Part shown: positions 5,804-24,636 of the stretch, piece after piece
Numbering within the stretch: position 1 is the stretch's first letter
Layout of the letters: each line of letters begins with the position of its first letter
From: Clostridia bacterium
GTDB taxonomy: Bacteria; Bacillota; Clostridia; CAKSNL01; HGM11501
NCBI GenBank assembly: GCA_045545475.1
Contig: JAZQAZ010000034.1
Location: forward strand, 33,287 to 97,286
Direction: 5' to 3'
Length of the DNA: 64,000 nucleotides
Translations under genes and position numbers: made by a program
Notes under the pieces: generated by a model
Databases searched by the model: none
Told to the model about the DNA's origin: nothing
What the model saw: the letters and a program-made list of their open reading frames with translations, nothing else

Positions 5804-7108
5804 ATGAGAGCAAAAAACATTATTGCACTTATCTTAATTGCGGCAGTTATATTCATGATGTGCTTCGTATGCCTGTTTGATGTAACTATCGGCGATTACA
5901 GATTCCCGGATGCTCTTGATGAAGAGTACGGAATTAAGCAGGGCCTTGACCTGGTGGGAGGTTCGCTTATTGAATTTAAACCTGATACAGAGGAAACACC
6001 TTCTGCAGACCAGATGGCAACGGTTAATTCCATTATGAGAAACCGTCTGGACTCCCAGAGCTATTATGATGCAACGGTAGCAATTCAGGCTGACAATACC
6101 ATAAGAATTGAAATTCCCAACGTGGATGACCCTTCCGAGGCAGTTTCAATTCTCGGTTCCACAGCAAAGCTTACCTTCAGAGATTATGAGGGTAACGTTC
6201 TTATGGAAGGCTCCGAAGAATTCGTTGCAGATGCACAGATGCAGTACGGACAGACTTCCGAGGTTGGTGTAGCACAGTATTATGTTGCACTTACACTTAC
6301 CGCTCAGGGAAGAGAAGCTTTCAAGGCAGCAACAGAGGCTGTTCTTAACTACACTTCCGAGGGTAATAACTACATCGCAATTTATCTTGACGAAACACCC
6401 TTCAGCCAGCCCATGGTATCTGAAGTAATCGATGCAGAATCCTGCGTAATCACAGGTGATTTCTCAAGAGAAAGTGCTGAAACACTTGCGGCACAGATCA
6501 GAAGCGGTCAGCTTCCCTTTAATCTTGCCGTTTCTCAGCTTCAGAGCGTAGGTCCCACACTCGGTGAGGAAGCTCTTTCAAAGAGCCTTGTTGCAGCAGG
6601 TATTGGTATTCTTCTTGTAATCATTTTCATGATTGCATTGTACAGACTTTCCGGTGTTACTGCGGCAATCAGCCTTTGTGCTTACGCAGCACTCGTTGTA
6701 ATCATTCTTATAAGAATCGGTGCAACACTTACACTTTCAGGTATTGCAGGTTTGGTTCTTTCAATCGGTATGGCGGTTGACGCTGACTGTATTATATTTG
6801 AAAGAATGAAGGAAGAACTTCGTACAGGAAAAACCATTGGTGCATCACTTGATGCAGCATTCAACCGTGCAATGGTTGCAATTTTCGACGCTAACGTAAC
6901 AACATTGATCTGTGCTGTAGTGCTTTACTTCTTCGGTACAGGCTCTATCAAGGGCTTCGCTGTTACACTCGGCGTTGGTACATTGGTAAGCTTCTTTACA
7001 GCAATCGTTCTTACAAAGGTTATATTAAAGCTTATCGTTAAAGGCTTTGGAATCAAAAGTTCCGGCTGGTTCGGTGTGAAAGGAGTGGCTATTGATGAAA
7101 CAGTATAA
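5804..7108 (+). CDS. secD: Protein translocase subunit SecD
   Basis: Large periplasmic-type loop, then six C-terminal TM helices with LSGIAGLVLSIGMAVDADCIIFERM. Overlaps secF. Confidence 0.92.
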   Translation: MRAKNIIALILIAAVIFMMCFVCLFDVTIGDYRFPDALDEEYGIKQGLDLVGGSLIEFKPDTEETPSADQMATVNSIMRNRLDSQSYYDATVAIQADNTIRIEIPNVDDPSEAVSILGSTAKLTFRDYEGNVLMEGSEEFVADAQMQYGQTSEVGVAQYYVALTLTAQGREAFKAATEAVLNYTSEGNNYIAIYLDETPFSQPMVSEVIDAESCVITGDFSRESAETLAAQIRSGQLPFNLAVSQLQSVGPTLGEEALSKSLVAAGIGILLVIIFMIALYRLSGVTAAISLCAYAALVVIILIRIGATLTLSGIAGLVLSIGMAVDADCIIFERMKEELRTGKTIGASLDAAFNRAMVAIFDANVTTLICAVVLYFFGTGSIKGFAVTLGVGTLVSFFTAIVLTKVILKLIVKGFGIKSSGWFGVKGVAIDETV

Positions 7109-8098: not shown

Positions 8099-8127
8099 GA
8101 CCTTACAATTTATAAGGAGAGATGACA

Positions 8128-9951
8128 ATGAAAAAGAAATTTTTTGCGGCAATATGTGTTTTTGTGCTTGCCATGGCGGCACTCACTCTTACTTCCTTTG
8201 CGGCAAGAAAGGAGAGTTTGCCCATAACTCTTCGCACAACGGGATATAAAACAGTGAATGAAACGGTAATTACAAGGTTTGAAGTTACCGAAATTGAATC
8301 TTACTACAATGACCAGATACAACTGTGCTTCGAAATGGACAGAATAGTGGTTTCCGGAAGCAACTCAATCAGCATGGAAGTGGACTGCTTCGATGCTGAG
8401 GGCGAATATATAAAAACGGTATACTTAAGTTCATACAGCGATTATATACTGGTACCCGACAATACCGCAACAATTGAACTTAAGGCAGATACCCCTGCAT
8501 CCGACAGCGAAAGCTATGTTTACCGCAAATATGTAGCATTATACAATATTGACGGGGCAACTGCACAGGTTACTAATATACAGGCAGCTACTTATCAGGA
8601 AAACGGATGGCGTACCGCAGCACAGTATAACAATATTAAGAGAACGCTTCCCATTAACCTGGTTTATGATGACGGTGATATTACAACTATAAGTGCATTT
8701 GATATTACAAAAGTAGAAACCGCATGGGATGGAGATCTCAGGCTGAGCTATTCGCTGGAATATGAGTATACAAGAGGATACAGCGGCCCATCTATATACA
8801 TAAGATGTTACAATTCTTCAAGAGAATGTGTTGATACAATGTTAGTTTCGGAGTACGGTTCATATGTGGATGTTCCCTATGATACCACCGATATTGAGCT
8901 GTTTACCAAGTATGGTGCAGCAGACAGCCAGAGCTATCTCATAAGCAATTATTCCACGATGTATTCATCCGACGGAAGAAGCATAGTTGTAAGTGATTTG
9001 CAGATATCTTCCTATGAGGCTGTGGGTTGGGCACTTGCGGTTCCCGTTTACGCTTATGAAAACGGAGAATTTACGAGAATGACTTATATAAGTCCTTATG
9101 ACGTTTCTTCGTGGCAGGCTGTAGGCTGGTACAGCTATGAAGAAACCTGCAATGCCGAAACCTTGTATGCAATGGATGAAAACGGTAAGTTTACGAGAAC
9201 ACTTAAGGTTCCGCAGAGGTTGGTATCTGCATATACGGCGGTTGGTTGGTATACCTATTCTCAGAAAAATGATATTGAAACTGCCGTAACTTTGTACGCA
9301 CCGGATGCAAACGGAAACTTCACAAGAACCATAAGCGTGCCTGCAAAGGATGTTGCCGCATATACGGCGGTTGGTTGGTATACAAAAGAGGAAGCCTTTA
9401 AGAAAACGAGTCTTCCTGTTATATTCTGCAATGCCAATGGCGGAACAATTACATTCAGTAACTTTACGGTTAACGGCGTAAGTAAAGATGATGACGGCAG
9501 AACAAAGATTGAATATGAAATCGGATACACAAATAACAGTAACTCGAATTTTAAGATTTTATATAATCTTTATGATGCGTACGGCAATCTTTACGGGTCC
9601 GTCACGAGCAGTCATACGACAAGAGGCTCAGAAAAGGAAAATTGGACACTCCGAACAGATAGTAAAATTGCAAAAATTGAAATAAAATTAGACGGCGGAG
9701 CAAGTAACAGCCAGACTTATGTATACAGTAATATGATAACAGTATATGCCTCCGACGGAAGAACCATGGAAATTTATGATTTGCAGCTTCCCGTTTACGA
9801 AGCTGTGGGCTGGTACTCATCGCCGGAAGCGGCAAATGCTCCTCCTCCCGGGTCCGAGCCGGAAGAACCCCAGGAGCCGGAAGAACCGGCTGCAGGTTCA
9901 GCCCCCAAAGGTGAAAAGCCTTCCAAGCCCAGCAGACCTCCACGCTCATAA
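8128..9951 (+). CDS. Secreted modular repeat protein with reiterated Y-x-A-V-G-W-Y motifs and a Pro-rich basic tail
   Basis: Signal peptide (KKKFFAAICVFVLAMAALTLTSFA). Three modules of about 130 aa, each ending ..DG(R/A)..V....Q...YEAVGW. Three repeats of about 40 aa (LYA.D.NG.FTRT..VP...V.AYTAVGWY). No family recognised. Confidence 0.7.
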   Translation: MKKKFFAAICVFVLAMAALTLTSFAARKESLPITLRTTGYKTVNETVITRFEVTEIESYYNDQIQLCFEMDRIVVSGSNSISMEVDCFDAEGEYIKTVYLSSYSDYILVPDNTATIELKADTPASDSESYVYRKYVALYNIDGATAQVTNIQAATYQENGWRTAAQYNNIKRTLPINLVYDDGDITTISAFDITKVETAWDGDLRLSYSLEYEYTRGYSGPSIYIRCYNSSRECVDTMLVSEYGSYVDVPYDTTDIELFTKYGAADSQSYLISNYSTMYSSDGRSIVVSDLQISSYEAVGWALAVPVYAYENGEFTRMTYISPYDVSSWQAVGWYSYEETCNAETLYAMDENGKFTRTLKVPQRLVSAYTAVGWYTYSQKNDIETAVTLYAPDANGNFTRTISVPAKDVAAYTAVGWYTKEEAFKKTSLPVIFCNANGGTITFSNFTVNGVSKDDDGRTKIEYEIGYTNNSNSNFKILYNLYDAYGNLYGSVTSSHTTRGSEKENWTLRTDSKIAKIEIKLDGGASNSQTYVYSNMITVYASDGRTMEIYDLQLPVYEAVGWYSSPEAANAPPPGSEPEEPQEPEEPAAGSAPKGEKPSKPSRPPRS

Positions 9952-11235: not shown

Positions 11236-12768
11236 TTAATTTCTGAAATCAAAAGAAAGTGTGTTTCCGTCGGACTTGATTTCTTTCTCTGAAACGGCAC
11301 AGCCACAGGTAAGCTTAACCTTGTATGAAACGCCCGAAAAGGAAAGTGTAAGTTCCTTTTCGCTTACACTTTTCACTTCATAGGAATGGGGGCATTCGAT
11401 GCCGATTGCATTTTTAAGTGTAAAGGGCATTTTGCCTTCAATTTTCATGCCGCTTTCCGTGAGAGTAATCGTAATGTCTGAAAATTCAGCTTTGGCAGAG
11501 CCGTTGCTCAAATCTGTAAATTTCATTTCGCTATTTTCGGGAAAGCTTCCGTCTTCAAATGTAATAAATCCGCCTGCTCTCACGCCTTTCCCGGTAAAGC
11601 GACAGCCGTCAATAAAGGGAAGTGCCTCGTAAGTTGCACAGTTTTCGGTGCATACGGAATCAAGGAAGGGGTCTTTAAGGCTGTCAGAATAAATGTGAAG
11701 ATCGCGGATACGTACGCCTTTTTCGTCGGAATAAATATTAACTCTGAAAAATTTGCTTGAATACCAGAGGGAATTTTTGCCCTCGTCGTCAAAAGCAGTG
11801 TGCGCCGTAATTGCCGAGGCGGGAGTGTCGGAAAAGGTTTTTTTATACCATCTGCCCGTTTCGCCTGCTGTTTCAACGGTGATTTTTCCCTCCCTCTGAA
11901 GCTTTTCAAAAAGCGGGAACTGATAATTAAGCCCATCTTTCATTTTGCTCCAGCCGAAGGAATTTTCCTGACCTGCCTGGGTATAGCCAAAGGAAAGACA
12001 GTCGCCGTTAAAGTTTTCCTTCATATACCAGTCAATCCATTTTGGGTTTCCGCCGCATCCGGGATATACAGGCTCTAAAGAGATAACGTCCTGGCGATTG
12101 TAGCTTTCTGCATTTTCATCAAGCTTGTAGTCATATTGATAAACAGGGTCCGATCCCAGCATTCTGAATAGGGGCACCGGCAGCATATTTTCCTTATTTA
12201 CAGCAGGAAGGAACACGTTTTTGCGGTTGGGATAATAGCCCTGACCGTAGTATCCGCCCCAGAGGGTGTATCCGTCGGTGCCGAACTGCTCTTTACAGTT
12301 CATAAAAGCATCAATGCCGTAGTGCTCGTTGGCATATACTGCCGTGTGGGAATCAAAAAGCCAGGAGCCGAAGGTTTTGGGATAGCAGCCAAAAACCTCG
12401 TGGAATTTTGAGAAAAGTACATCGATGAGCTTTTCGCGTTCTTCTTTTGTGTAGCCCACGGAAAAGCCTGTATCTGTGTGCCAGTCCCAGGAATAGCGTC
12501 CGCGCCATGTAAGATTTGCCGCTTCAACGTGGGGCTGGGTGATTTCATACCAAACGCCGATTTCAAACTGACCGGGGTCAAGCTCCTTTAAAAGATCCTG
12601 ATAAAAGGGCATAATCAGTGCATCATACTGAAGCAGAAAGGTTGCCTTTAAATTGTGCTTTTTAAGAAGAGAAATCTGTTCCTTTACGGGAGTTTCCAGA
12701 TCCATGGGAAGACGTGGTTCAACGGCTCTTATAAAGTTTACTATATTTACAATTTGTCTTTTTTTCAT
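11236..12768 (-). CDS. Hypothetical cytoplasmic carbohydrate-active-like protein (510 aa)
   Basis: The internal ATG at 12768 has RBS aaaaggag. The track's upstream 66 codons run through the divergent promoter region. Adjacent to galK. No confident family. Confidence 0.5.
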   Translation of the reverse strand: MKKRQIVNIVNFIRAVEPRLPMDLETPVKEQISLLKKHNLKATFLLQYDALIMPFYQDLLKELDPGQFEIGVWYEITQPHVEAANLTWRGRYSWDWHTDTGFSVGYTKEEREKLIDVLFSKFHEVFGCYPKTFGSWLFDSHTAVYANEHYGIDAFMNCKEQFGTDGYTLWGGYYGQGYYPNRKNVFLPAVNKENMLPVPLFRMLGSDPVYQYDYKLDENAESYNRQDVISLEPVYPGCGGNPKWIDWYMKENFNGDCLSFGYTQAGQENSFGWSKMKDGLNYQFPLFEKLQREGKITVETAGETGRWYKKTFSDTPASAITAHTAFDDEGKNSLWYSSKFFRVNIYSDEKGVRIRDLHIYSDSLKDPFLDSVCTENCATYEALPFIDGCRFTGKGVRAGGFITFEDGSFPENSEMKFTDLSNGSAKAEFSDITITLTESGMKIEGKMPFTLKNAIGIECPHSYEVKSVSEKELTLSFSGVSYKVKLTCGCAVSEKEIKSDGNTLSFDFRN

Positions 12769-12964
12769 AAAAAAGTCTCCTTTTCCATTTTTTGCGATTA
12801 TACTGCCGCTCGCATAAAAAGTCAACCGAAAACAGAGAATTGTGTTATTAAATTTAATTTTGTACGATTTTATAATTTTAAAATGTACTTGTATAAAATG
12901 GGAAATTGATGTATAATGAATAAAATATGCAGAGAATGCATTTTGCAAAAAAGGAGGGAGAACC

Positions 12965-13648
12965 ATGCTTCTTGAAGATGAAAAAATTGAAGAGCTTGGG
13001 ATTGAAGGCTTAAGGCTTATTCAATCGGACAAGCTTTTTAAGTACGGCACTGATGCGGTGCTTCTTTCAAAATTCGCCAAGGTGAAAAAAGGTGGCGAGG
13101 TTTTGGACTTTTGCACAGGAAGCGGAATAATTCCTCTCCTTATGTATGCCCGAAACAAGGAATGCTCCTTCGATGCCCTTGAAATAACGGAAAAAGCCTC
13201 GGATATGGCAAGGCGGAGTATGGAATTAAATAACCTTTCCGATAAAATAAAGGTAACAAAGGGCGATATCAAAAACGCCCGTGAAATTTATAAGGGCAGA
13301 CAGTTTGATTTAATAACCTGCAATCCCCCTTATATGGATGCAGGGGGAGGTTTAGTTAATCCCGACACGGATAAAGCCTGTGCAAGGCATGAAATTTTCT
13401 GCACGCTGGAGGATGTAATAAGGGAAGCATCCCACTTAGTGCGTCCCGGCGGATTTTTCTCAATGGTGCATCGTCCACGCCGCTTAACCGACATAATGTG
13501 CTTTATGAGAGAGTATAAGTTAGAGCCGAAACGCCTCACCTTCGTGGCAGACTCACCGGGTAAAGAGCCTGATATGATTTTGATTGAAGGTTTGAAATGC
13601 GGCGGAAAGTTCTTGAAAACAGACATCCTCTATTTAAAGGAGAATTGA
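12965..13648 (+). CDS. trmN6: SAM-dependent N6-adenine methyltransferase, tRNA1(Val) m6A37 type (YfiC/YabB-like)
   Basis: SAM motif VLDFCTGSG and catalytic NPPY (ITCNPPYMD). Sits directly upstream of rsmI, as yabB-yabC does in Bacillus. Confidence 0.75.
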   Translation: MLLEDEKIEELGIEGLRLIQSDKLFKYGTDAVLLSKFAKVKKGGEVLDFCTGSGIIPLLMYARNKECSFDALEITEKASDMARRSMELNNLSDKIKVTKGDIKNAREIYKGRQFDLITCNPPYMDAGGGLVNPDTDKACARHEIFCTLEDVIREASHLVRPGGFFSMVHRPRRLTDIMCFMREYKLEPKRLTFVADSPGKEPDMILIEGLKCGGKFLKTDILYLKEN

Positions 13649-13649
13649 T

Positions 13650-14486
13650 ATGGCAGGAAAACTTTATTTATGTGCAACACCCATCGGAAATTTGTCCGAT
13701 ATTACTCTTCGCTGTTTAGAAGTTCTGGAATCGGTTGACTTAATTGCGGCGGAGGATACAAGGCACACCTTAAAATTACTTAACCATTTTGAAATTACAA
13801 AGCCATTAACCAGCTACTATGAGCATAACCGAAAGGAAAAAGGCTATATGCTGGCAGATGAAATACTGGCAGGTAAAAATATCGCCCTGGTTTCCGATGC
13901 GGGCACTCCCGCAATCAGCGACCCCGGCGAGGATCTGGTTGCAATATGCATAGAAAAGGGGATTGATGTTGTCCCCGTTCCCGGATGCGTTGCGGCTATA
14001 AATGCTTTAATCGGAAGCGGTATGCCCACGGGCAGATTTTGCTTCGAAGGCTTTTTAAGCGTAAACAAGCAAAGCAGAAAAGAGCATTTAGAGGCGATAA
14101 AAGACGAAACAAGAACGATGATTTTCTACGAAGCTCCCCATAAATTACTTGCTACATTAAAGGATTTTGAAAAGGTGTTCGGTGGTGACCGCAGAATTTC
14201 CCTTTGCCGTGAGCTTACTAAAATCCACGAGGAATATGTAAGGCTTACTGTTTCCGAGGCAATAGCTAAATATGAAGAAACGCCCCCAAAGGGAGAGTTT
14301 GTGCTGGTGGTATCGGGGGCAGAGGAAAAAATCGAGGACTTTTCATCCTTGTCCATATCAGACCACGTTGAAATGTATATAAACGAAGGTTTATCTGAAA
14401 AGGACGCCATGAAGGCGGTTGCAAAGGACAGAGGAATTAAAAAAAGCGATATATACGCAGAATATAAATTAGGGAAGTGCGACTAA
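13650..14486 (+). CDS. rsmI: 16S rRNA (cytidine1402-2'-O)-methyltransferase
   Basis: LYLCATPIGNLSDITLR..L..VDLIAAEDTRHT and SDAGTPAISDPG are RsmI hallmarks. Confidence 0.93.
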   Translation: MAGKLYLCATPIGNLSDITLRCLEVLESVDLIAAEDTRHTLKLLNHFEITKPLTSYYEHNRKEKGYMLADEILAGKNIALVSDAGTPAISDPGEDLVAICIEKGIDVVPVPGCVAAINALIGSGMPTGRFCFEGFLSVNKQSRKEHLEAIKDETRTMIFYEAPHKLLATLKDFEKVFGGDRRISLCRELTKIHEEYVRLTVSEAIAKYEETPPKGEFVLVVSGAEEKIEDFSSLSISDHVEMYINEGLSEKDAMKAVAKDRGIKKSDIYAEYKLGKCD

Positions 14487-15133
14487 TGGAAAAGACAAGA
14501 ATGATTTTCGTCCGCCACGGCGAAAGCGAAGGAAATAAGGTACACGCCTTTTTGGGCCATTCCGATGCCAATCTTTCGGAAAAGGGACACCTTCAGGCGG
14601 AAAAGACAGCGGAATACTTAAAAAACGAAAAAATTGACGCGTTTTATTCAAGTGACCTAAAGAGAGCCTATCAGACGGGCTGTCACATCGCAGGCCGTCA
14701 CGGATGTGCACCCATTCCGGATGAGCAGCTTCGTGAGGTTTTTGCAGGTGAGTGGGAATGGAAAAAGTTTGAGGATTTATTAATAGAATATCCCGTAAGC
14801 TTCGGCATATGGAAGGATAACGTGGGCGAGGCACACCCCGACGGGGGCGAGGCGGTAAGTCACCTTTATGACAGAATTATAAAAAGGGTTTGGGAAATTG
14901 CAAGGGAAAACCTTGGCAAAACCGTTTTAATCACGTCCCACGCAACGCCGATCCGTGCCCTTCGCGCCTATTGGGAAGGCTTGCCCGCCGGGGATATGAA
15001 GCTTTTCCCCTGGGCAAGCAATGCTTCGGTTTCAATTGCAGATTACTATGAGGATGGTCACATTGAGCTTGTATGCTACAGCGACGATTCTTTTATGGGG
15101 GATATTGCAACAGCATTACCCAAGAATGTGTAA
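14486..15133 (+). CDS. Histidine phosphatase family protein (phosphoglycerate mutase-like)
   Basis: RHGES motif (MIFVRHGESEGN) and a downstream ITSHATPIRAL His. TAATG overlap with rsmI. Confidence 0.8.
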   Translation: MEKTRMIFVRHGESEGNKVHAFLGHSDANLSEKGHLQAEKTAEYLKNEKIDAFYSSDLKRAYQTGCHIAGRHGCAPIPDEQLREVFAGEWEWKKFEDLLIEYPVSFGIWKDNVGEAHPDGGEAVSHLYDRIIKRVWEIARENLGKTVLITSHATPIRALRAYWEGLPAGDMKLFPWASNASVSIADYYEDGHIELVCYSDDSFMGDIATALPKNV

Positions 15134-15235
15134 GGGAAAAATTTTCACTTGTCAACGTCAGCGGCGAATATTTCCTGTTTGTAATGCTCTTTATGATATT
15201 AAGAAAATCAATAAGAACATATGAAAGGACACAGA

Positions 15236-15472
15236 ATGATTGATAAGAAAAAAATCGAGGAATTGTTCAATTACAGTGCAACTATTCCTCTGAACAATGA
15301 AGGACTTAGAAAAGAATATAGGAAGAATTTGTTGTCGGAACTTGGAGAAAACAAGGAAGAGGTTATCCTTTTTATCTCGAATGCAGACGATGACACACGT
15401 TTTATGCTGGATGAAATCTATGAGGAACTGGCTGAGAAGTTTGGCGAAGAGATTGATGATGTGTTGTATTAA
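15236..15472 (+). CDS. Small acidic hypothetical protein (78 aa)
   Basis: ATG 15236 lies 6 nt after aaagga. Strongly acidic C-terminal half. No family recognised. Confidence 0.4.
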   Translation: MIDKKKIEELFNYSATIPLNNEGLRKEYRKNLLSELGENKEEVILFISNADDDTRFMLDEIYEELAEKFGEEIDDVLY

Positions 15473-15536
15473 AAATTAGAACCTCAAAAGCTTCTCGCAG
15501 GCTATTACTTTGAAGGAACAAAGATGAAACAAAGGG

Positions 15537-15812
15537 GTGCTATTTTTGAACAGTACAGTATTCACGGTTTTTGTTTTACCTTATTTTATCGGAATAATTA
15601 TAAGACTGATATTTGTTAAGTGGAAAAAAGGATATATTTTAACGGGAGCTTTTGCTGCTCTCTCGGTTATAGCGTGGATATGGACAAAGCACCTTACAAA
15701 TCACGGAGTTGACGGAACTGTAATGCTTTGGGCTTTGATGATGACAGAGCTTACTGTGGGGGCCTTGATTACAGGCGTAATAAGGCTTTTAATAAAAAAG
15801 CTAAAGCGTTAA
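15537..15812 (+). CDS. Small membrane protein (about 90 aa, 3 TM)
   Basis: Hydrophobic helices. The start is uncertain (GTG 15537 or TTG 15546 after aaagggg). Confidence 0.4.
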   Translation: MLFLNSTVFTVFVLPYFIGIIIRLIFVKWKKGYILTGAFAALSVIAWIWTKHLTNHGVDGTVMLWALMMTELTVGALITGVIRLLIKKLKR

Positions 15813-15828
15813 AAATGCTTTAGCTATC

Positions 15829-15862
15829 GGCATAACGCTTTGGCGTTGTGCCTTTTATTTTT
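15829..15862. repeat. Left copy of a 34-bp perfect direct repeat (orphan copy of the araC-family gene 3' end)
   Basis: ggcataacgctttggcgttgtgccttttattttt is identical to 16407-16440. On the minus strand it reads KIKGTTPKRYA followed by DS*. Confidence 0.9.
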
Positions 15863-16358
15863 ATGTATCGGATAACATGTTGCATATGTCTCTGACAATA
15901 TCATCAATATTTTTTTCTGCTGTAATAGGTGTTTCGTTCAACACATCGGAAAAATCTTTTTCGCGCCACCATCTGCGCATATCTTCCTCACCAAATTCAT
16001 GGCAATTGGATTTTGTCTGATGTCTCTTCAAAGTTTCCTCGAAAGGTAAATCAAAATAGAAAGCGTATATTTCCGAATTATATAGTTTATTGGAGAGTTC
16101 AAATAATGGCTTATACCAATCTGCATTCATTATTCCTTCCAATATAACGATATCGCAATGCTTGTGACCGTATATCAAAAGTTCTTTCATAAGCGGCAGT
16201 GCGAGGGTGTTTTCGCCATCTTTAACTTTAAGCATATCTCTTCTTATTACATCCTGCGAAATAAGCATAGTATTAAATCCGAATCTGTCTTGTAATTCTC
16301 TCGCAATCGTGGATTTTCCGCTGCCTGAATTACCTCGGAGTATAATTAATTTTTTCAT
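15861..16358 (-). CDS. P-loop kinase / AAA-type NTPase (165 aa)
   Basis: Walker A ILRGNSGSGKSTIA close to the N-terminus. Size and layout fit a small-molecule or nucleotide kinase fold. RBS agaggtg. Confidence 0.7.
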   Translation of the reverse strand: MKKLIILRGNSGSGKSTIARELQDRFGFNTMLISQDVIRRDMLKVKDGENTLALPLMKELLIYGHKHCDIVILEGIMNADWYKPLFELSNKLYNSEIYAFYFDLPFEETLKRHQTKSNCHEFGEEDMRRWWREKDFSDVLNETPITAEKNIDDIVRDICNMLSDT

Positions 16359-16394
16359 ATTTACACCTCTATGAAAATTTATAATTCTATCTGC

Positions 16395-17216
16395 CTAAAT
16401 ATCATTGGCATAACGCTTTGGCGTTGTGCCTTTTATTTTTTTAAAAAGCTGAACGAAATAGGGAACGTCGGAAAAGCCTGAGCCTTCCGCCGCTTCCGAC
16501 ACGGAAGAGCCGTTTTTAAGCATCTTGCATGCCTCGGAAATCCTTACCCCGTTAAGATAGGAAAGGTATGTAATTCCCGCACTTTCCCGAAACTTTGTGC
16601 AGAAATAAAACTTACTGTAGCCCATTTTTTCCGCTATGTCGGAAATAGAAATTTTCTCACGGAAATGAAGCTTGGTATAGTTTATAATTTCCCGAAGCTC
16701 ACTTTCGTCAAAGGCGTTACCCGATGGGAGAACTTCCTCACGGCTGAAGGTGCGAAGATGAGAAAAAAGGGATACGGCAATGCTTGTTGCCGAAAATATA
16801 TCTTCGGCTTTTGCCAAAGCGTTCACAATGGGCAAAATTTCATCAAAGCAGTCGGGATTTACGTCAATTGACATAAGGCTTTTTCCCTCGGATGCCAAAA
16901 GTGCCTCAAAGCTCAAAAAGGGCGAAAAGCCCTCGGGGGAAAGCTTTACGTTTAAGAGATTACCGCTGCTTTTTTTATAGCTCATTGAATGAACTGTTTC
17001 CGGCGGAATATAAAAAACCTGATTGCCCGACAGCTTATAGCGGTGTCCTCCTATAATCACCTCGCCCGTCGCCCCTGAAAAAAGCAAAATCTCAACAGTT
17101 TCCGCATAGTGGGGTGCGACAAGCTCATCACGGTCAAAGGTCGTATAAATCACCGAAAAAGGTATGCTTTTTGAAAAATCTTTATGCTCTTTAAAAGCGG
17201 TGAAAATATTGTTCAT
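16395..17216 (-). CDS. AraC family transcriptional regulator (cupin sensor plus HTH)
   Basis: C-terminal AraC HTH (ISDIAEKMGYSKFYFCTKFRE..G.T...YL). Divergent from the glycyl-radical-enzyme operon. Confidence 0.85.
   Translation of the reverse strand: MNNIFTAFKEHKDFSKSIPFSVIYTTFDRDELVAPHYAETVEILLFSGATGEVIIGGHRYKLSGNQVFYIPPETVHSMSYKKSSGNLLNVKLSPEGFSPFLSFEALLASEGKSLMSIDVNPDCFDEILPIVNALAKAEDIFSATSIAVSLFSHLRTFSREEVLPSGNAFDESELREIINYTKLHFREKISISDIAEKMGYSKFYFCTKFRESAGITYLSYLNGVRISEACKMLKNGSSVSEAAEGSGFSDVPYFVQLFKKIKGTTPKRYANDI
16407..16440. repeat. Right copy of the 34-bp direct repeat (functional 3' end of the araC-family gene)
   Basis: Identical to 15829-15862. Here it encodes KIKGTTPKRYA followed by NDI*. 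Confidence 0.9.
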
Positions 17217-17323
17217 AGCCCCATTATATATTAAATAACAAAATATTGCAACATTTTTCCTTAATATTTCCCATTGAAACGGGACTTTTTTCGCACTATA
17301 ATATAATAAAAGGAGGTTTTATT

Positions 17324-18427
17324 ATGATTAAAGCTGTAATTATTGGTTGTGCACATATGCACGTTAACGAAATTGCCTTATATATAACCGAGGCGGAGGG
17401 GATAAATCTGGTTGCCGCCGCCGACCTTGTGCCGGATACCGCAGAAATCGTAAAGGCGAGATACACAAGGGACTGGAATAAGGAAAACATTAAAAATAAC
17501 TATTGTGACAACATTTACGACGACTATATTAAAATGCTTGATACTGAAAAGCCTGACTGGGCGTTTATCTTAACGGAGAACAAAAACAAGCCTGCCGTGG
17601 TGGAAGAGTGTGCAAAAAGGGGAATTAACGTAAGCATCGAAAAGCCCATTGCCGTAAGCTATGAAGAGGCATTAAAAATCGAAGAATCCGTTAATAAGTA
17701 CGACATCGAGGCAATTGTAAACTGGCCCGTAATCTGGCGCCCCTATATGTATGAAATGATAAATGCATATAGACTCGGTCTGGTGGGAGACCTTAAAAAG
17801 CTTTACTACATAAACGGTCACACAGGCCCCCTTGGTGCAGGTGCAAAGCACAGAGGCGTTTCCGACACCGCCGAGGAAATGACGGACGAGGCAAGAAGCA
17901 AAACCTGGTGGTATCAGAAGAATCAGGGCGGCGGTGCCATCCTTGACATTCTGTGCTACGGTGCAATGTATTCTGCACTATTACAGGAAGGCGATGCAAA
18001 AAGCGTTTATGCCTATTCCGACAACTTAAATACGCCCTACTCCGATGCGGAGGACAACGTGAGTGCGGTAATCAAATACGATAACACCTACACCGTTGCC
18101 GAGGGAACATGGACAATTCCTCAGCTTGTTCTTCCTGGCGGCCCCGTACTTATGTGCGAAAAGGGTGCAATTTACACTAAAAAGGAAGACGGTGTATGCA
18201 CCGTTCTCGCTGTTGATATGTACGGAAATCCCTTGGAAATTCCCAAATGCGAATTTCCAAAGTATATGAAAAACATTGCAGAGCATCTTACTTATGTAAA
18301 GAAAACGGGTTCGCCCCTTACAAAGGAAGTAACCCTTTCACAGAATATGAAGGTTATGGCAATTTTAGATGCGGCGAAAAAATCCACCGAATCGGGATGC
18401 GAGGAAAAGGTAGTATGCAGACCGTAA
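17324..18427 (+). CDS. Gfo/Idh/MocA family NAD(P)-dependent oxidoreductase
   Basis: N-terminal Rossmann segment MIKAVIIGCAHMHVNE and the EKP motif (VSIEKPIAVS). ATG 17324 follows aaaggagg. Confidence 0.85.
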   Translation: MIKAVIIGCAHMHVNEIALYITEAEGINLVAAADLVPDTAEIVKARYTRDWNKENIKNNYCDNIYDDYIKMLDTEKPDWAFILTENKNKPAVVEECAKRGINVSIEKPIAVSYEEALKIEESVNKYDIEAIVNWPVIWRPYMYEMINAYRLGLVGDLKKLYYINGHTGPLGAGAKHRGVSDTAEEMTDEARSKTWWYQKNQGGGAILDILCYGAMYSALLQEGDAKSVYAYSDNLNTPYSDAEDNVSAVIKYDNTYTVAEGTWTIPQLVLPGGPVLMCEKGAIYTKKEDGVCTVLAVDMYGNPLEIPKCEFPKYMKNIAEHLTYVKKTGSPLTKEVTLSQNMKVMAILDAAKKSTESGCEEKVVCRP

Positions 18428-19194
18428 AAGGAATCGTCGCTGACATTCAGCGCTCATCCATCCACGACGGGCCGGGGATAAGAACCACCGTGTTCTTAAA
18501 GGGCTGTCCCTTAAACTGCAGTTGGTGTCACAACCCCGAATGTATAAAAAAAGAGCCCGAAACCCTTTTCTATCCCGAAAAGTGCATCGGCTGTAATATG
18601 TGCGATAAGGGTTGTTTTTCCGGGGCAAAAGTCATTTGCGGAAAGGAAATGACTTCTTACGAGGTTTTAGCCGAGGTTATGCTTGATAAGGCATATTATA
18701 AAAACGATGGCGGCGTCACTTTCTCGGGGGGCGAGCCTATGCTGCAAAAGGAATTTGTGGCGCACCTTTCCGACCTTTGTCACGAAAACGGAATCAACAC
18801 AGCCATTGAAACATCAATGTATATTTTCGACAGCGACGTTTTATCGAAAATGGACTACATAATGTGCGACGTTAAAATATGGGATGACGAAAAGCACAAA
18901 AAATACACCGGCGTGTCGGGCGAAAAAATAAGGGAAAACATTAAAAAAGCGGATAAGCTTGGTATCCCGATTTTAATAAGAACGCCCATAATACCGGGAA
19001 TTAATGACACGGTTGATGAAATTAAAAACATAAAAAGCTTCGTTATGTCCCTTGAAAATGCGGCAGGTTATGAGCTTTTGCCCTATCATCCGCTGGGAGA
19101 CGGGAAGAGGGCGGCGTTGGGACTTATCGCACCCGAATTTAACATTCCCGAAAAAGAAAAAATGGAGGAATTAAAAAGCTATGCTCACATATAA
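18415..19194 (+). CDS. Glycyl-radical enzyme activating protein (radical SAM)
   Basis: SIHDGPGIRTTVFLKGCPLNCSWCHNPE (CX3CX2C) plus an auxiliary CIGCNMCDKGC cluster motif. Overlaps the upstream gene by 13 nt and the downstream gene by 14 nt. Confidence 0.9.
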   Translation: MQTVKGIVADIQRSSIHDGPGIRTTVFLKGCPLNCSWCHNPECIKKEPETLFYPEKCIGCNMCDKGCFSGAKVICGKEMTSYEVLAEVMLDKAYYKNDGGVTFSGGEPMLQKEFVAHLSDLCHENGINTAIETSMYIFDSDVLSKMDYIMCDVKIWDDEKHKKYTGVSGEKIRENIKKADKLGIPILIRTPIIPGINDTVDEIKNIKSFVMSLENAAGYELLPYHPLGDGKRAALGLIAPEFNIPEKEKMEELKSYAHI

Positions 19195-21397
19195 AGACAG
19201 ACTTTCAAGTATGAGGGAAACAAAAATCCGTCATACTCTCTTAAAAAGAAAGCAAAACGGCTTTACCGATTTAGACGATTTCGGCACAGTGCCCATTTCC
19301 GAGGGCTATGCCGTAACACCCTGGTACAACAGCGAAAACGGAAGCTTTTACGGACTTGACGGAATGTGTGAAAACTTCTGCCGTGTACTTGATGCCCACG
19401 AGCCATATGTTGACCCCATGGAAATGCTTTGCGGTCGCTGGAGAGATATGCTTGTAAACTACAGAGGCGACCTTCACTATATGCCCGACTGGCTTAAGAA
19501 CAACCTTAAAAATCTTGAGTTTATCAAAAACGGTGCCACAAATCAGTGGAGTAAGCGTTGGGACGAACAGCGTTTTCCCTATGACCACTTAAAGCCCTGG
19601 CAGGAAAAGTACAACATCACCACCGGCATTGACGGGGATGCCCACTTTGCCTGCGACTATAAAATCGGCTTTGAGCTTGGCTTTGGCGGTTTCCTTGACA
19701 AAATTAAAAAATACCGCGAAATAAATCCCGATAAAAAGGCGTTTTACGATGCGGAAGAGCGATGCGTTCTTGCGATAGTTGCCTTTATCGACCGCCATAT
19801 TGCAAAAATCGGAGAGATGATAAAAACGGAAAACCGCTCCGAAATAAAGGAAAATCTTGAAACGATGAAAAAGGTCTGTGAAAATATTCGCCTGGGTGCA
19901 CCGCAAACCTTCCACGAGGCTTGTCAATGGACGGCGTTTTTCAACTGCGCATCCCGAATTTACACCCGTGACGGTGCAGGCTTTCAGCTTGACGGGCTTT
20001 TATATCCCTTCTACGAAAAGGACGTAAAGGACGGAATAATAGACGATGAAACAGCAAAATTCTTAATTGCAAACCTTCTTTTAATTGATCCCCATTACTA
20101 TCAGATTTCGGGCGTTGACGAAAATGATTGCGATATGACAAATAAGCTTTCCTACCTTATTCTTGACGCGGCAGATTCCATAAACATCGCCTGCAACTTA
20201 ACCGTAAGGGTGCATCCTGCCTGCGATAAGGAGTTTCTTAAGAAAGCGGTTTCCTGCCTTCTTAAAAATAAAAACGGATGGCCCAGATTCTGTAACGATA
20301 AAGCTCTTTGCGAGGGCTATATGAGAAACGGCGTGGACAAGAAAACCGCCCGTGAAAGAATTGCCGTGGGCTGTAACTGGATGTGCGTGCCCGGCAAGGA
20401 ATTCCCCATGAATGACACGGTAAAAATCAACGTGGCAAAGGTTATGGAAGAAGCCTTAAAGGATATGAAATCGGAAAAGGAAAAATCCACCACCCGACTT
20501 TTTGAAATTTACAATGAGCATCTTAAAAAAGCGGTTGAAATCACCGCCGAGGGCATAAATCTTCATATTGACCACGCCCACGACGTAACCCCCGAGCTTA
20601 TTATGAATTTAATGATGCATAACACTTTGGAAAAAGGCCTTGATATATCAGAGTGTGCCTCTCTTTACACCGTGGGCATTGACGGAGCGGGCCTTGCTGT
20701 GGTTGCCGATTCCTTCGGTGCTATGGAAAGCCGCATCGAAAAGGAAAAACTTCTTACCTGGGATGAGCTTTACGGGGCACTGGAGAGTAATTTTGCCGAT
20801 GAGCGAATCCGCCTTATGTTAAATTCAGCACCCCGCTACTGCGGCGGCGAAACGGTGTCGGATATTTGGGCAAATCGTCTTACAGAGTCCTGGGTTAAAA
20901 CCGTCAAGGGGCAGAAAATGCCTGAGGGCAGGTGTTTAGTTCCCGGTTGGTTTTCCTGGAGCAGAACCATTGAATATGGTTCTAAGGTTGGCGCAACCCC
21001 CAACGGCAGAAGGGCAGGGGAGCCCATTTCCCATGGTGCAAACCCCAATCCCGGCTTCCGTCGTGACGGTGCCGTTACCGCGCAGAGCGAGGGCATCGCA
21101 AAAATTCAGTGCGGCTACGGAAACACAGCACCGTTGCAGCTTGAGTTTGATCCCAATCTTGCAAATGACGAGGCGGGAATTGACACGGTTACAAGCTTAA
21201 TTGAAGCACATTTTGAAAACGGCGGAACATTAATAAACATCAACATCCTTGATAAGGATAAGCTTCTTGCCGCCAACGAAAACCCCGACCTTTACCCCGA
21301 CCTGGTTGTAAGAGTAACAGGCTTCACCGCATATTTTGCAAGCCTTTCACCACGTTTCCGTCAGCTTGTGGTAGACAGGTTCTTAGAAGGTATGTAA
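19181..21397 (+). CDS. Glycyl radical enzyme (PFL-fold), uncharacterised subclass, 738 aa
   Basis: C-terminal fingerprint VVRVTGFTAYF (Gly714). Candidate thiyl Cys398 in AVGCNWMCVPGKE lies 316 residues upstream, comparable to PFL Cys419-Gly734. A dedicated activase lies upstream. Confidence 0.85.
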   Translation: MLTYKDRLSSMRETKIRHTLLKRKQNGFTDLDDFGTVPISEGYAVTPWYNSENGSFYGLDGMCENFCRVLDAHEPYVDPMEMLCGRWRDMLVNYRGDLHYMPDWLKNNLKNLEFIKNGATNQWSKRWDEQRFPYDHLKPWQEKYNITTGIDGDAHFACDYKIGFELGFGGFLDKIKKYREINPDKKAFYDAEERCVLAIVAFIDRHIAKIGEMIKTENRSEIKENLETMKKVCENIRLGAPQTFHEACQWTAFFNCASRIYTRDGAGFQLDGLLYPFYEKDVKDGIIDDETAKFLIANLLLIDPHYYQISGVDENDCDMTNKLSYLILDAADSINIACNLTVRVHPACDKEFLKKAVSCLLKNKNGWPRFCNDKALCEGYMRNGVDKKTARERIAVGCNWMCVPGKEFPMNDTVKINVAKVMEEALKDMKSEKEKSTTRLFEIYNEHLKKAVEITAEGINLHIDHAHDVTPELIMNLMMHNTLEKGLDISECASLYTVGIDGAGLAVVADSFGAMESRIEKEKLLTWDELYGALESNFADERIRLMLNSAPRYCGGETVSDIWANRLTESWVKTVKGQKMPEGRCLVPGWFSWSRTIEYGSKVGATPNGRRAGEPISHGANPNPGFRRDGAVTAQSEGIAKIQCGYGNTAPLQLEFDPNLANDEAGIDTVTSLIEAHFENGGTLININILDKDKLLAANENPDLYPDLVVRVTGFTAYFASLSPRFRQLVVDRFLEGM

Positions 21398-21415
21398 TAA
21401 GGAGAGGTAAAAAAG

Positions 21416-21515
21416 AGATTCTTCCTCGGCATAGCCTTCATCAGAATGACATAGGTGTACTATGCTGTCATTCTGATAGAGGGGATTCTGAAAGCCCCGA
21501 AGGAAGAATCTGAAA
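21416..21515. repeat. 100-bp MITE-like hairpin element
   Basis: Terminal inverted repeats agattcttcctcgg / ccgaaggaagaatct. Inner inverted repeat atcagaatgaca / tgtcattctgat. Flanked by direct repeats aaggaga(g/t)gtaaaaaa(a)g at 21399-21415 and 21516-21533. Confidence 0.65.
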
Positions 21516-21801
21516 AAGGAGATGTAAAAAAAGTCCAGACCGCAAAAAGGCAAATAAATTAGTGGGTTGGGCAAAGTTACAAACTCTATGTTGTAAAATA
21601 GTGTTGAAAAATCGCATTCCTGCGATTTTTCTTCATTTTGAGCCTTTTTGCTACGAACAAACTTCACCCTCAACGTATCTATATACGCCTTCGGGTAACT
21701 TTCGAAAAGTCTGTAAACAGACTTTCTCAATTCAGTTTGTCCGTTCTGAAGCATTTTTTCCTATCTCCTGAAAAAGGGGCTGTAATTATTTTACAGCCCC
21801 T

Positions 21802-24636
21802 TTATTTTACAAGATATGCACTTATTTCCTTTACGGTAATTGTACCTGCACCGGTATCTGTTTTGGGTGTAACGGATATTTTCTTAACACAGATTGGTTT
21901 TGTGAAAGTGTAAAGGGATGCACCTGTTGTTATGTCATAGTCGCTGACTCCAACGGACAGTTTATTTCCCTCCGAGTCATATATGTGAACTTCCATTTTC
22001 ATATATTCATCTGATAAGACTGCCGAAATGCTTACACCATCTATCACAAGACCTTCTTTGCCGGGAAACTCCACCATAAGAGTTTTGTCATGAAGAAAAT
22101 CAATGACTTCTGCACTGTCTGTTTCATCAAGAACTGCGGCGGCGGGAAGGTAGGAGGTGTCCTTTTCTATCTTATAGGCGGACCACCCTGTTTTGTTTAC
22201 GAAAGCCTTTTCTCCTGTGGAAGCGTTAAGTGTTGCTATAGTTTCGTCGTTATTTTTTGCTGTGAAGAGACCGCCTATGGCAATGCCACCAAATACGATA
22301 ATGGCAATAGAGGCGATGAGAACCATGAACTTGAAGTTTTTTCCGGAAACTATTTTATTGAAAACACGTTTAATCGGGGAATAATGCTCGCTTACTATTC
22401 CGGATATAACTTTTTTGAATTCCAAAGTGAGGTCTTTATATTCAGGGTGAAGTACCGATACATTATCAAGCTCTTTTTTCAGCTTTTTTATATTACGGTC
22501 ATTGGTTAAAAGTGTATTGTGACGAATGAAAAATTTACGCAGTGACTCATAAAATGATGTGAGGACGGTAAAGTCTGTTCTGATTCCGGGGATATCCCTT
22601 ACAATACGCCCGTTTTTGGTCATAGGTGGAATAAAGAGGTTTGATGATAAAAACCACTCTATGAATTCAAAGGGAGGAATTGATTGCTCCTTATCTATAA
22701 ATTCCAGAATGCTGTCAAAATCCACCTGAGCACGGGAATCCTTTGAACCGTAAATATAAAACAAAATTATGTAAACAATGCGTCTCGGAGAGTCCTTCTT
22801 TTCCTTTATACAACGGAGAAGTAGGGCTTTGAGCAAATCTTCTTTAGCTTTACCGTCTGATTGAGAGTCTGCAAAGTTTGCCCTTATGTTTTCAAAACCG
22901 AAGGCATCATAGTGAACAAATGACATGGCCATATCGTTGGTTAATGCCATTATTTCCTTTGCAGCCATTGCGATTTTGTGTTTGACAGTACATTCTTCGT
23001 TGATTGCTTCTCCGTCGGCAAGGGGGAATTTTTCAATTTTTGCAAGGTTGAGCTCCGAAATATCCAGCGTGGTCATATAGTTTTCAAGAGCATAACGATA
23101 AATTACGTTAAAGAGGGAGGCGTTATCAGGATGCTTGTCTTTAAGGGCAAGACACTTCTCCTCAAGATACTTAACTGCCTCAAAGCGGTCGCCCGAAGTA
23201 TCATAAAGTTGCATTGCTCTTTGCTGTATCATTGATATAATAAGCTCGCTGTCGGCAAGCTGAGGCATTTCGGAAAAAATACTGTCCGCAAATTCCATAA
23301 CCGAATGAACGGTTTTACGCTGTTCGATAAGATAGGTGAAATAGCGTGTTATTAAGCGGTTGCTTTTTGCCATTTTATGCTCTATTAATTTGTTATACAG
23401 CTCGCTGCTTCCTCTGGATGAGTCGATGTGCATGAAAAGAATTTCATTTTCCGAGGATTTAAGGCAGGAATCTATATCCAGCGTTATAAGGTCATAAAGT
23501 TCGTCTTTCTGCTTTTCTGGACAAAGGTCGTATGTTGAAACCAGTCTTTTGAGAATTTCCGGAGGGATCAGTATTTCCTTGCTTTTAATATAGCGTCTGT
23601 AAAGCTTTATAAATTCAGAATAAGAGGCGAGCAGACCTGGTTTGTCATCAGAACGCAAAAATTCTGCAAAAACTGTTGTAATTCTGCCGAGTCTTTGAGG
23701 AAGTGTTTCCTCGTTATCCTTTAAGTTATATATATAGGCAAGGTCGTTATAAAAACGCAGTGACAGAATTTTTTCTGTGGGAAAAGCACGTTCAGCTTCT
23801 CTGGCAAAAGCAAAAAAGTCTGAAAGTGAGGTGCCTGTGGCAAAGCTTGTTGATACAAAGGAAAGGTATTCCTCAGAAAGAGCTTCCTTTGTGTCAGGAA
23901 CCTGAGAACGGTTTTTCTTGCTGAAATTGAATATATAATCCTTTGAAGCGTCATAGGATTCGATTGAAAATCTTCCGCTGGGCGAGACTTTATCGTCGGG
24001 AATAAAGTAGATATTTATTTCGGGGCGAATCTCTGTTTCTCCGAAAAGAGTGCAAAAGCCGGTTTTGCTTCTCATAAAAAAGGGAAGGTATTCGTAGAGT
24101 CCGTACATTATGGCACATATTTTATCAATGTCTGTTTTTCTGGGAAGAGCAATGAAAATTTTTCTGTTTTGCTCAACAGATGCGAAAACAGCGGCGAGAA
24201 GTGCCATGTATTCTGTATGAGACATGTTAAGGGAGGCAAAAGCTTTTTTCAGGAAAGTGCTGCGTTCTTTTGTAAAAGGAAGTTCCTTTAGCGACGGCAG
24301 ATATGGGTTTTTTGCATCATCGGGTTCAGGGAGAGCCAAAATGGCAGCAGGGTCGGAAACAACGGCAGATACATCATCCTGAGGAATGATGTAATTATGG
24401 ATGCAGGAATAAGGTTCTGTAGCCGATTTCATTCCCGTGCCGATTAAAAGACCGCCACCCGATAAAGGAATGAAGCTTTTGTATCCGGGCGAGTCTTTGC
24501 CCTCTAGATAAAAGAGATCCAGCATGGAGTAAAAAGGACGGATTGCATTGTCGATATATTCTTCGGTTAACGTTGTGGATTTTGAAGAAGTTTCAAGTCC
24601 AATTCCCGTTTTTATGTAAATTTGCTGTTCTATCAT
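21802..24636 (-). CDS. Large orphan single-pass membrane protein (944 aa)
   Basis: Strong RBS aaaaaggagg. About 740 cytoplasmic residues, one TM helix (FKFMVLIASIAIIVFGGIAIGGLF), then a beta-rich exodomain of about 160 aa ending ..GAGTITVKEISAYLVK. No family recognised. Confidence 0.7.
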   Translation of the reverse strand: MIEQQIYIKTGIGLETSSKSTTLTEEYIDNAIRPFYSMLDLFYLEGKDSPGYKSFIPLSGGGLLIGTGMKSATEPYSCIHNYIIPQDDVSAVVSDPAAILALPEPDDAKNPYLPSLKELPFTKERSTFLKKAFASLNMSHTEYMALLAAVFASVEQNRKIFIALPRKTDIDKICAIMYGLYEYLPFFMRSKTGFCTLFGETEIRPEINIYFIPDDKVSPSGRFSIESYDASKDYIFNFSKKNRSQVPDTKEALSEEYLSFVSTSFATGTSLSDFFAFAREAERAFPTEKILSLRFYNDLAYIYNLKDNEETLPQRLGRITTVFAEFLRSDDKPGLLASYSEFIKLYRRYIKSKEILIPPEILKRLVSTYDLCPEKQKDELYDLITLDIDSCLKSSENEILFMHIDSSRGSSELYNKLIEHKMAKSNRLITRYFTYLIEQRKTVHSVMEFADSIFSEMPQLADSELIISMIQQRAMQLYDTSGDRFEAVKYLEEKCLALKDKHPDNASLFNVIYRYALENYMTTLDISELNLAKIEKFPLADGEAINEECTVKHKIAMAAKEIMALTNDMAMSFVHYDAFGFENIRANFADSQSDGKAKEDLLKALLLRCIKEKKDSPRRIVYIILFYIYGSKDSRAQVDFDSILEFIDKEQSIPPFEFIEWFLSSNLFIPPMTKNGRIVRDIPGIRTDFTVLTSFYESLRKFFIRHNTLLTNDRNIKKLKKELDNVSVLHPEYKDLTLEFKKVISGIVSEHYSPIKRVFNKIVSGKNFKFMVLIASIAIIVFGGIAIGGLFTAKNNDETIATLNASTGEKAFVNKTGWSAYKIEKDTSYLPAAAVLDETDSAEVIDFLHDKTLMVEFPGKEGLVIDGVSISAVLSDEYMKMEVHIYDSEGNKLSVGVSDYDITTGASLYTFTKPICVKKISVTPKTDTGAGTITVKEISAYLVK

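Follow-up and report, generated by a model that had tools for sequence, protein, structure and literature searches.

A small P-loop kinase gene in the 64-kb stretch of Clostridia bacterium DNA analysed here (contig JAZQAZ010000034.1; called the window below, with positions counted from its first letter) lies between two copies of a perfect 34-bp direct repeat, one of which belongs to the 3' end of the coding sequence of an araC-family gene. The account that we favour, with modest confidence, is that the kinase arrived as an inserted cassette at the junction of araC with a convergent histidine phosphatase (His_Phos) gene, that the araC 3' end was duplicated by recombination, that the inverted repeats bounding the cassette were later lost, and that the displaced (orphan) araC end may have been retained as a terminator. 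Loci from other genomes and from metagenome contigs are cited by number (L001 and so on), and the features of the window on which this account draws are as follows.

16395-17216, minus strand: araC-family regulator of 273 amino acids (aa; HTH_18 and HTH_AraC in Pfam), the target gene with the duplicated 3' end.
16407-16440 (16404-16440 with one mismatch), minus strand: right copy of the repeat, within the araC 3' coding end, encoding (K)KIKGTTPKRYA.
16359-16398, minus strand: cassette-derived kinase leader, holding the ribosome-binding site, a -10-like TATAAA and the araC stop TAG (16395-16397).
15861-16358, minus strand: P-loop kinase of 165 aa, the inserted cargo (Pfam AAA_33; Walker A motif GNSGSGKST).
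15829-15862 (15826-15862 with one mismatch), plus strand: left (orphan) copy of the repeat, a predicted intrinsic terminator hairpin.
15797-15825, minus strand: second hairpin (AGCTAAAGC-N9-GCTTTAGCT), found by folding both strands and followed by TTTTTTATT / UUUUUUAUU on the minus strand.
14486-15133, plus strand: His_Phos, the conserved convergent neighbour and the other edge of the insertion site.

The window contains exactly two copies of the 34-mer (GGCATAACGCTTTGGCGTTGTGCCTTTTATTTTT), one at 15829-15862 and one at 16407-16440, which match without a single difference, and dinucleotide shuffles gave an expectation of 0.00 chance matches with up to 3 mismatches allowed; in a repeat search that accepted one mismatch the pair reached 37 nt (15826-15862 and 16404-16440, spacing 578). 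By direct reading, the right copy belongs to the C-terminus of AraC (...KKIKGTTPKRYANDI / ...KIKGTTPKRYANDI), and the left copy is non-coding, the equivalent frame reading ...IKIKGTTPKRYADS / ...KIKGTTPKRYADS into its own in-frame stop; the kinase stop codon (15861-15863) shares the last 2 nt of the left copy. Between the copies the kinase is the sole long open reading frame (ORF) with a protein-family match (shorter overlapping ORFs are also present), and it starts 36 nt past the araC stop, co-oriented with araC and behind the ribosome-binding site GAGGTG. A preliminary description of this stretch had reported the perfect repeat pair, the coding right copy, the orphan left copy with its stop and the single gene with its ribosome-binding site between them, and all of these observations hold. 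Both copies are exact in same-species metagenome contigs (L001-L005 and L007, about 97% identical to the window at the repeat/kinase locus), and L006 has one substitution in the orphan (contigs L008 and L009 stop short of the second copy); because the pair stands in seven independent metagenome contigs, an assembly artefact is excluded. Viral contigs searched with the 34-mer gave no match.

Related genomes carry the same junction without the kinase. In the sister genome L137 (araC 73% identical in amino acids to that of the window and 82% to that of L010) the araC stop, in a tail that reads GCC GAT GAG GTA AGA TGA, is followed after 56 bp by His_Phos, with a single orthologous repeat copy (1160-1193, one substitution) and no kinase, so that the comparison with relatives proposed in the preliminary description does find an empty site. 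The kinase is also missing in the more distant relatives L016, L012/13 and L138 (araC about 55% identical). Since these sites lack the kinase, the gene in the window is an insertion.

What was inserted can be seen more completely elsewhere. In L010 (same synteny as the window; araC 73% and kinase 85% identical), L011 and L232 the kinase lies between two inverted repeats of about 85 bp with the core GGGGGATTGCGATTTCCCCC, at identical distances from the gene (at 6873-6960 and 7510-7597 in L010, and at 5860-5945 and 6510-6600 in L011), and in L142 (460-1146) the upstream repeat is visible and the contig ends inside the downstream one. The cassette occupies three sites: the araC/His_Phos junction (L010, L232), the interval between Aldo_ket_red and DUF1648 (L011) and a position after a SASA-like gene (L142). 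In L232 (1-730) both repeats are present at the araC/His_Phos junction and there is no orphan on the His_Phos side; its His_Phos end matches L137 at 21 of 22 nt, unlike the window, and its spacer is homologous to the L137 spacer (p ~0.01). The two repeat types are swapped about the kinase, with the order A-kinase-B in L010 and B-kinase-A in L011, L142 and L232, and the kinases of L010 and L232 are nevertheless equally oriented towards His_Phos; internal inversion with re-insertion, or conversion between the repeats, could account for the swap. No araC sequence is present in the cassettes at the other loci (L011, L142), and a screen of about 230 loci revealed no further insertions at the araC site. 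The window itself contains no copy of the inverted-repeat core within 3 mismatches and no inverted repeat flanking the kinase.

Synonymous divergence (dS) separates the history of the kinase from that of its neighbours. Between the window and L010 the kinase dS is 0.41 (bootstrap 0.26-0.60) against 0.81-1.77 for six neighbouring host genes (bootstrap 0.62-0.99 for GFO and 0.71-0.98 for PFL), and by this measure the kinase at the araC site is younger than the host genes around it. The L232 kinase is at a dS of only 0.10 from that of the window (bootstrap 0.03-0.18), whereas host genes of the window and L137 differ at a dS of about 0.9-1.2; because the L232 kinase is so close to the window's and yet stands beside an L137-like flank, the cassette appears to have moved between lineages. 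The composition of the kinase (35.5% GC) also differs from that of the host genes on either side (43-48%). The empty sites, the other insertion sites in L011 and L142 and the low kinase dS together support the kinase as an inserted, horizontally moving single-gene unit, and the mobile single-gene cassette of the preliminary description is retained to that extent.

It is unlikely, in our judgement, that insertion and duplication both occurred in a common ancestor of the window, L010 and L137 and were inherited vertically, with the two copies kept alike by gene conversion and the cassette lost from L137 when the repeats recombined. The window and L010 do agree in site, orientation and duplicated araC end, each of their kinases has the other as its closest relative if L232 is set aside, and recombination from repeat to repeat would restore a clean empty site like that of L137. 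Vertical descent is nevertheless hard to reconcile with a kinase dS below that of every neighbouring host gene, with the L232 kinase being so similar to the window's within an L137-like flank and a different structure, with the swapped repeat types of L010 and L232 at one and the same site, and with cassettes at other sites in sister genomes.

The junctions suggest how the repeat pair of the window may have come about. In L010 the duplication of the araC 3' end measures 69 nt (97% identity, 67/69, between copies), and compared with its 69-bp orphan that of the window is cut short at either end. Between the first L010 copy and the cassette end lie about 54 bp of unrelated sequence. The L010 orphan starts inside TGTCCCCT, 8 nt that end the inverted repeat on its outer side and in araC code for (D)VPY, and past the orphan the sequence is colinear with the L137 tail and spacer (p ~0.07), which places the orphan in the original chromosomal position. 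The orphan side of the window looks like the original position too: its orphan keeps GCC-GAT, matching the araC tail of L137, before a further insertion begins. Two extensions of these similarities, one of about 45 bp common to the L010 and L011 flanks and one carrying the L010 duplication beyond 69 bp plus the tail, were dropped as not significant against shuffles. A CRISPR-like reading (34-nt palindromic repeat, spacer, repeat) was likewise dismissed, the "spacer" being a 544-bp gene and the repeat being 69 nt long in L010.

After the kinase stop, L232 and L010 read AAATAA|CCCCTTG (AAATAA|CCCCTTGAA...), leading into the inverted repeat, and the window reads AAATAA|AAGGCAC (AAATAA|AAGGCACAACG...), which is the orphan; araC proper has AAAAAAATAA|AAGGCACAACG at the equivalent point. 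The downstream junction of the window thus has the appearance of a deletion from one AAAAATAA octamer to another, and the upstream breakpoint may tentatively be placed in a TGCC common to the end of the repeat and the inner end of the inverted repeat. On the upstream side, the 27 nt preceding the kinase ATG are identical in the window and L232, and the leader can be aligned to about 40 nt (with L232, L010, L011 and L142); since the leader matches the L232 cassette, the araC stop codon of the window sits in DNA derived from the cassette, and the AraC protein ends in NDI* as compared with DEVR* or GEVRV* in relatives. The leader has the -10-like hexamer TATAAA at 16383-16378, and a weakened -35 hexamer ATGATA lies at 16405-16400; L232 has the promoter-like TTGATA. 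With edges that are deletion and insertion junctions, the present length of the repeat is not set by a recombination core.

From these comparisons we infer the following sequence of events. The kinase would be the cargo of a small non-autonomous cassette of about 0.75 kb, with one gene and its own promoter, the ends of which would be two inverted repeats of about 85 bp from a family of dispersed hairpin repeats. The cassette would have spread among sister species of an uncultured Clostridia clade and entered the junction between araC and the convergent His_Phos operon, where its insertion would have been accompanied by a second copy of 69 bp or more from the araC 3' end. Recombination, rather than transposase or integrase chemistry, is most likely to have caused the duplication. 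Its route may have been a single-crossover (Campbell-type) integration in the conserved araC end, by incoming DNA that carried an araC end beside the cassette, or a homology-facilitated illegitimate recombination in which the conserved araC end served as the anchor and microhomology made the other join. Both inverted repeats would later have been lost by deletion in the window lineage: the deletion between the AAAAATAA octamers would have taken out the downstream repeat together with about the first half of an L010-like orphan, leaving 34 nt, and a deletion upstream would have joined the araC end to cassette DNA, creating a new four-codon araC tail and its stop.

The survival of the orphan coincides with a predicted terminator. 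On the plus strand, a terminator scan predicts for the 34-mer a hairpin of 24 nt with a 10-bp stem (6 G-C pairs) and a 4-nt loop, followed by TTTTATTTTT, and the hairpin folds at -17.8 kcal/mol (z = -4.05). It lies 16 nt past the stop of a plus-strand ORF of 91 aa (15537-15812), so that the orphan combines a G+C-rich stem-loop, a U-tract and a co-oriented upstream gene, the structural marks of a Rho-independent terminator. The second hairpin at 15797-15825 is likely, from its predicted fold, to be the terminator of the kinase transcript; orphan and neighbouring hairpin fold together as a two-hairpin structure (z = -5.6), and as the two adjoin on opposite strands the orphan would be one member of a pair of back-to-back terminators that separates convergent transcription units. 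The orphan's coincidence with a predicted plus-strand terminator may be the reason for its persistence.

A hairpin in the araC coding end itself (codons G-T-T-P-K-R-Y-A) was found only in the clade of the window, L010 and L137 (16407-16430 in the window, 1170-1193 in L137); distant orthologues (...TPRQYI / TPKQYV; L016 5165-5200, L012 1185-1215) have no hairpin in the coding end and a separate bidirectional terminator past the stop. As judged by predicted folding, this clade has an araC coding sequence that also forms, in antisense, a terminator-like hairpin.

Several observations weigh against the account preferred here, in which cassette insertion and recombination were followed by loss of the inverted repeats. 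The closest cassette relative, L232, has no orphan on its His_Phos side, so that deletions alone could not turn an L232-like state into that of the window; the assignment of L232 to its host is itself based on 22 nt plus a spacer match at p ~0.01. The TGCC at the upstream junction is short, and the microhomology join at the start of the orphan is known from one genome only. Within lineages the two copies are nearly identical (34/34 in the window, 67/69 in L010) despite a kinase dS of 0.41, and both L010 copies share the L010-specific CTG and CCG; gene conversion, selection or separate recent duplications could explain this identity. No target-site duplication and no mobilising enzyme was found for the cassette. 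The terminator activity of the orphan is a prediction, and the strain represented by L006 has a stem-weakening substitution there.

The preliminary description had instead proposed an att-type recombination in which the incoming DNA brought a replacement araC end. On this explanation a trans-acting tyrosine-type recombinase would have integrated a circular kinase cassette with an attP identical to the araC 3' end, and the repeats would be attL and attR. The direct repeats do bracket exactly one inserted gene and contain a palindrome, three host lineages (window, L010, L232) carry an insert at this one intergenic position, and the empty sites look like precise single-copy versions. We nevertheless regard this proposal as quite unlikely, and it is not upheld: the length of the repeat varies (34-37 nt in the window, 69 nt in L010), its boundaries fall on microhomologies (TGTCCCCT in L010, AAAAATAA in the window) and on deletion junctions, no araC-like sequence is present at L011, at L142 or on the His_Phos side of L232, and the cassette ends in long inverted repeats, unlike integrase-type elements. 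The accompanying remark that no recombinase is nearby is borne out, as Pfam scans of the long ORFs up to about 12 kb to the left and right gave housekeeping families only and no recombinase (three of these ORFs have no family match), and neither a recombinase nor a transposase is among the gene calls of related loci, including L010 and L011. Islands flanked by att sites in the 3' ends of tRNA or protein genes resemble the locus in their direct repeats, intact target gene and displaced orphan copy; here, by contrast, there is no adjoining cognate recombinase and no fixed core of identity, and the insert is one gene, about 0.5-0.75 kb long, that ends in inverted repeats. Integron gene cassettes have attC sites, imperfect palindromes of about 57-141 nt with paired core sites, and go with an IntI/attI platform, whereas the repeat holds a palindrome of just 24 nt and no integrase is nearby.

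Two published forms of recombination can also be compared. In homology-facilitated illegitimate recombination one homologous anchor is combined with one illegitimate join (PMC3240628), and the L010 cassette resembles that description in joining the conserved araC end on one side and an 8-nt microhomology within araC (TGTCCCCT) on the other, as would be expected of foreign DNA with a homologous anchor at only one of its ends. L010 offers one example of such a microhomology join (3-10 nt), and the other cassette end is not mappable; the difference, based on that one junction, is that recipient sequence is duplicated here and does not undergo the commoner deletion or replacement. Arrays of type VI secretion effector and immunity genes contain orphan 3' modules left by sequential displacement (PMC5361080). 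The likeness to that portrayal is that incoming DNA would recombine at a conserved gene end and push the old end downstream as an orphan; the araC orphan differs in being only 34-69 nt long, non-coding and apparently kept as a predicted terminator, not as an immunity gene.

The inverted repeats themselves belong to a dispersed family that was found at at least 120 loci (L017-L136) of the genome collection, in most cases as one copy by itself and frequently where a contig ends; the window has no copy of it. Some metagenome-assembled genomes of uncultured Clostridia hold many copies, which in Ca. Fimadaptatus are spread over more than 25 contigs. The family hairpin is GGGGG-ATTGCGATTT-CCCCC, with a 5-bp stem and a 10-nt loop, followed by CCCCTTGAAACGC / CCCCTT(G/A)AAACGC, and its stem is extended by covarying flanks (92% paired at the first flanking position, with differing base pairs); it is often preceded by another hairpin and sometimes arranged in tandem (L031). 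Rfam gave no match for the repeat or for anything near the locus in the window, the plasmid, phage and viral collections gave none for the repeat, and no protein family recurs within 2 kb of it among the 120 loci listed. Repetitive extragenic palindromic (REP) sequences and miniature inverted-repeat transposable elements are similar in being multi-copy intergenic hairpin families with compensatory stem changes and copies that often break assemblies; the differences are the lack of an Rfam match and of a RAYT-like or insertion-sequence gene, and an arrangement of two inverted copies around a gene that would be unusual for REP sequences.

That these hairpin repeats of about 85 nt (core GGGGGATTGCGATTTCCCCC, then CCCCTTGAAACGC) are the ends of undescribed, trans-mobilised elements of gut Clostridia, which would capture single genes, insert beside 3'-end hairpins with a long target duplication and prefer the araC site, seems improbable. 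Still less probable is a true target-site duplication made by an enzyme that cuts the strands tens of bases apart around a hairpin, as Cas1-Cas2 does in duplicating a whole CRISPR repeat. In its favour, the duplicated segment holds a strong palindrome and adjoins a cassette end in L010, and the other cassette insertions likewise lie just past gene 3' ends; the evidence against it is the lack of a flanking duplication at L011 and of an orphan on the His_Phos side of L232, the 54 bp or so of unrelated sequence between the first L010 copy and the cassette end, and the lack of a candidate enzyme recurring beside the repeat family. Transposase target-site duplications typically comprise 2-15 bases and abut the element ends; at 34-69 nt the duplication at araC falls outside that range, and the argument of the preliminary description that 34 bp is too long for such a duplication is sound. 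Chance similarity or an assembly artefact, for which one could cite only the generic conservation of the AraC-family motif FKKIKGxTPxxY, is a negligible explanation of the repeat pair, given the 0.00 matches expected from shuffles, the presence of both copies in seven independent assemblies and in L010, and the lack of the DNA repeat in distant araC orthologues with the same protein motif.

Among described systems the closest category for an inserted cassette of this kind is the mobile insertion cassette (MIC), a passenger gene between two inverted repeats without a transposase (PMC3913671). Like MIC231 of Bacillus cereus and mic-qnrD of Proteeae, the cassettes of L010, L011 and L232 carry a passenger gene with its own expression signals and occur at varied sites; the AAA_33 / PRK06762 kinase is the only gene between their repeats, and the neighbouring gene calls include no transposase. 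They differ from MICs in that their inverted repeats are long (about 85 bp) and come from a dispersed hairpin family mostly found as single units, in that L011 shows no direct repeat adjoining the inverted-repeat ends and no short target-site duplication and L010 has a repeat of 69 nt lying about 54 bp off one end, and in that neither an insertion sequence with matching ends nor a mobilising transposase was identified, no protein family recurring within 2 kb of the repeat at the 120 loci listed. Inverted repeats bracket the kinase in L010, L011 and L232 and not in the window, which, having lost both of them, would be a decayed derivative of the MIC type and is not filed as a MIC.

By its sequence the kinase belongs to the uncharacterised PRK06762 family: it scores 36.4 against AAA_33 (cut-off 27) and reaches the cut-offs of the PRK06762-type NCBIfam models NF005255 (176.4/140), NF005253 (175.7/159) and NF005257 (202.8/202), all of which are titled "hypothetical protein". 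A fold search returned the generic gluconate/NMP-kinase fold only, a PDB sequence search no match, and PADLOC weak P-loop matches only; exact-sequence look-ups of the window kinase and araC proteins also gave no match. One same-species contig, L004, has an in-frame stop in the kinase (5859-6356; ...WWR*KDF...), which suggests that this strain can do without the gene. The L007 kinase seems to lack 10 codons, but the gap is a stretch of N in the scaffold and no sign of decay. In other Clostridia, kinases of 70-85% identity are ordinary chromosomal genes without inverted repeats, which are absent at 79 of the 80 metagenome kinase loci of 70-80% identity and in the contexts L222-225 and L226-231; as far as these comparisons reach, the cassette form is restricted to the window's own clade.

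From the His_Phos stop to the araC stop (15134-16394) the GC content is about 35-36%, compared with 43-48% in the host genes on either side, and two features besides the kinase lie in this low-GC island.

15537-15812, plus strand: predicted membrane protein of 91 aa, with about 70 homologous clusters (60-97% identity).
15134-15529, plus strand: strain-specific low-GC insertion of 397 bp, carrying an ORF of 83 aa (15221-15472).

The 91-aa ORF has no Pfam or NCBIfam family; it is present in same-species contigs and absent at the same position in L010, L137 and L232, and so appears to have been acquired in the window lineage as well. The 83-aa ORF is acidic and has no family match, and the segment around it is missing in the same-species contigs L001, L002, L005 and L007, the alignment jumping from 15530 to 15133; on this comparison it is a third, strain-specific insertion in one intergenic site. 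Identity between the window and the same-species contigs is about 97% on the side of araC, the kinase, GFO and PFL (15530-21518) and about 94% on the side of His_Phos and a methylase (12886-15133), a step in divergence at the insertion site that suggests a recombination mosaic.

On its other side araC is divergent from GFO, radical-SAM and glycyl-radical enzyme genes. Past the glycyl-radical enzyme gene the window differs, at 21519-24636, from its own species and from L010: the Aldo_ket_red of L002 (1-694), L004 and L010 (438-1580) is absent and is replaced by a minus-strand ORF of 944 aa (21802-24636) without a Pfam match. Two more large ORFs near the site, of 609 aa (8122-9951, plus strand) and 576 aa (11236-12966, minus strand), gave no Pfam match at 1e-5.

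The araC locus is a clear case history of fairly ordinary genome evolution and no new kind of system. It illustrates that a long perfect direct repeat around one gene can mimic an att site without being one, the repeat here being most likely the residue of a larger, recombination-made duplication that was trimmed by later deletions. The convergent gene junction seems to be a recurrent landing place, with at least three nested low-GC insertions. The most novel lead is the dispersed repeat, an unannotated, structured multi-copy family in uncultured gut Clostridia of which two inverted copies bracket a moving kinase gene. Should its members be the ends of trans-mobilised elements, the araC repeats would be a genuine, unusually long target duplication; and if the family is true mobile DNA, it would offer a route for single-gene transfer in gut Clostridia.

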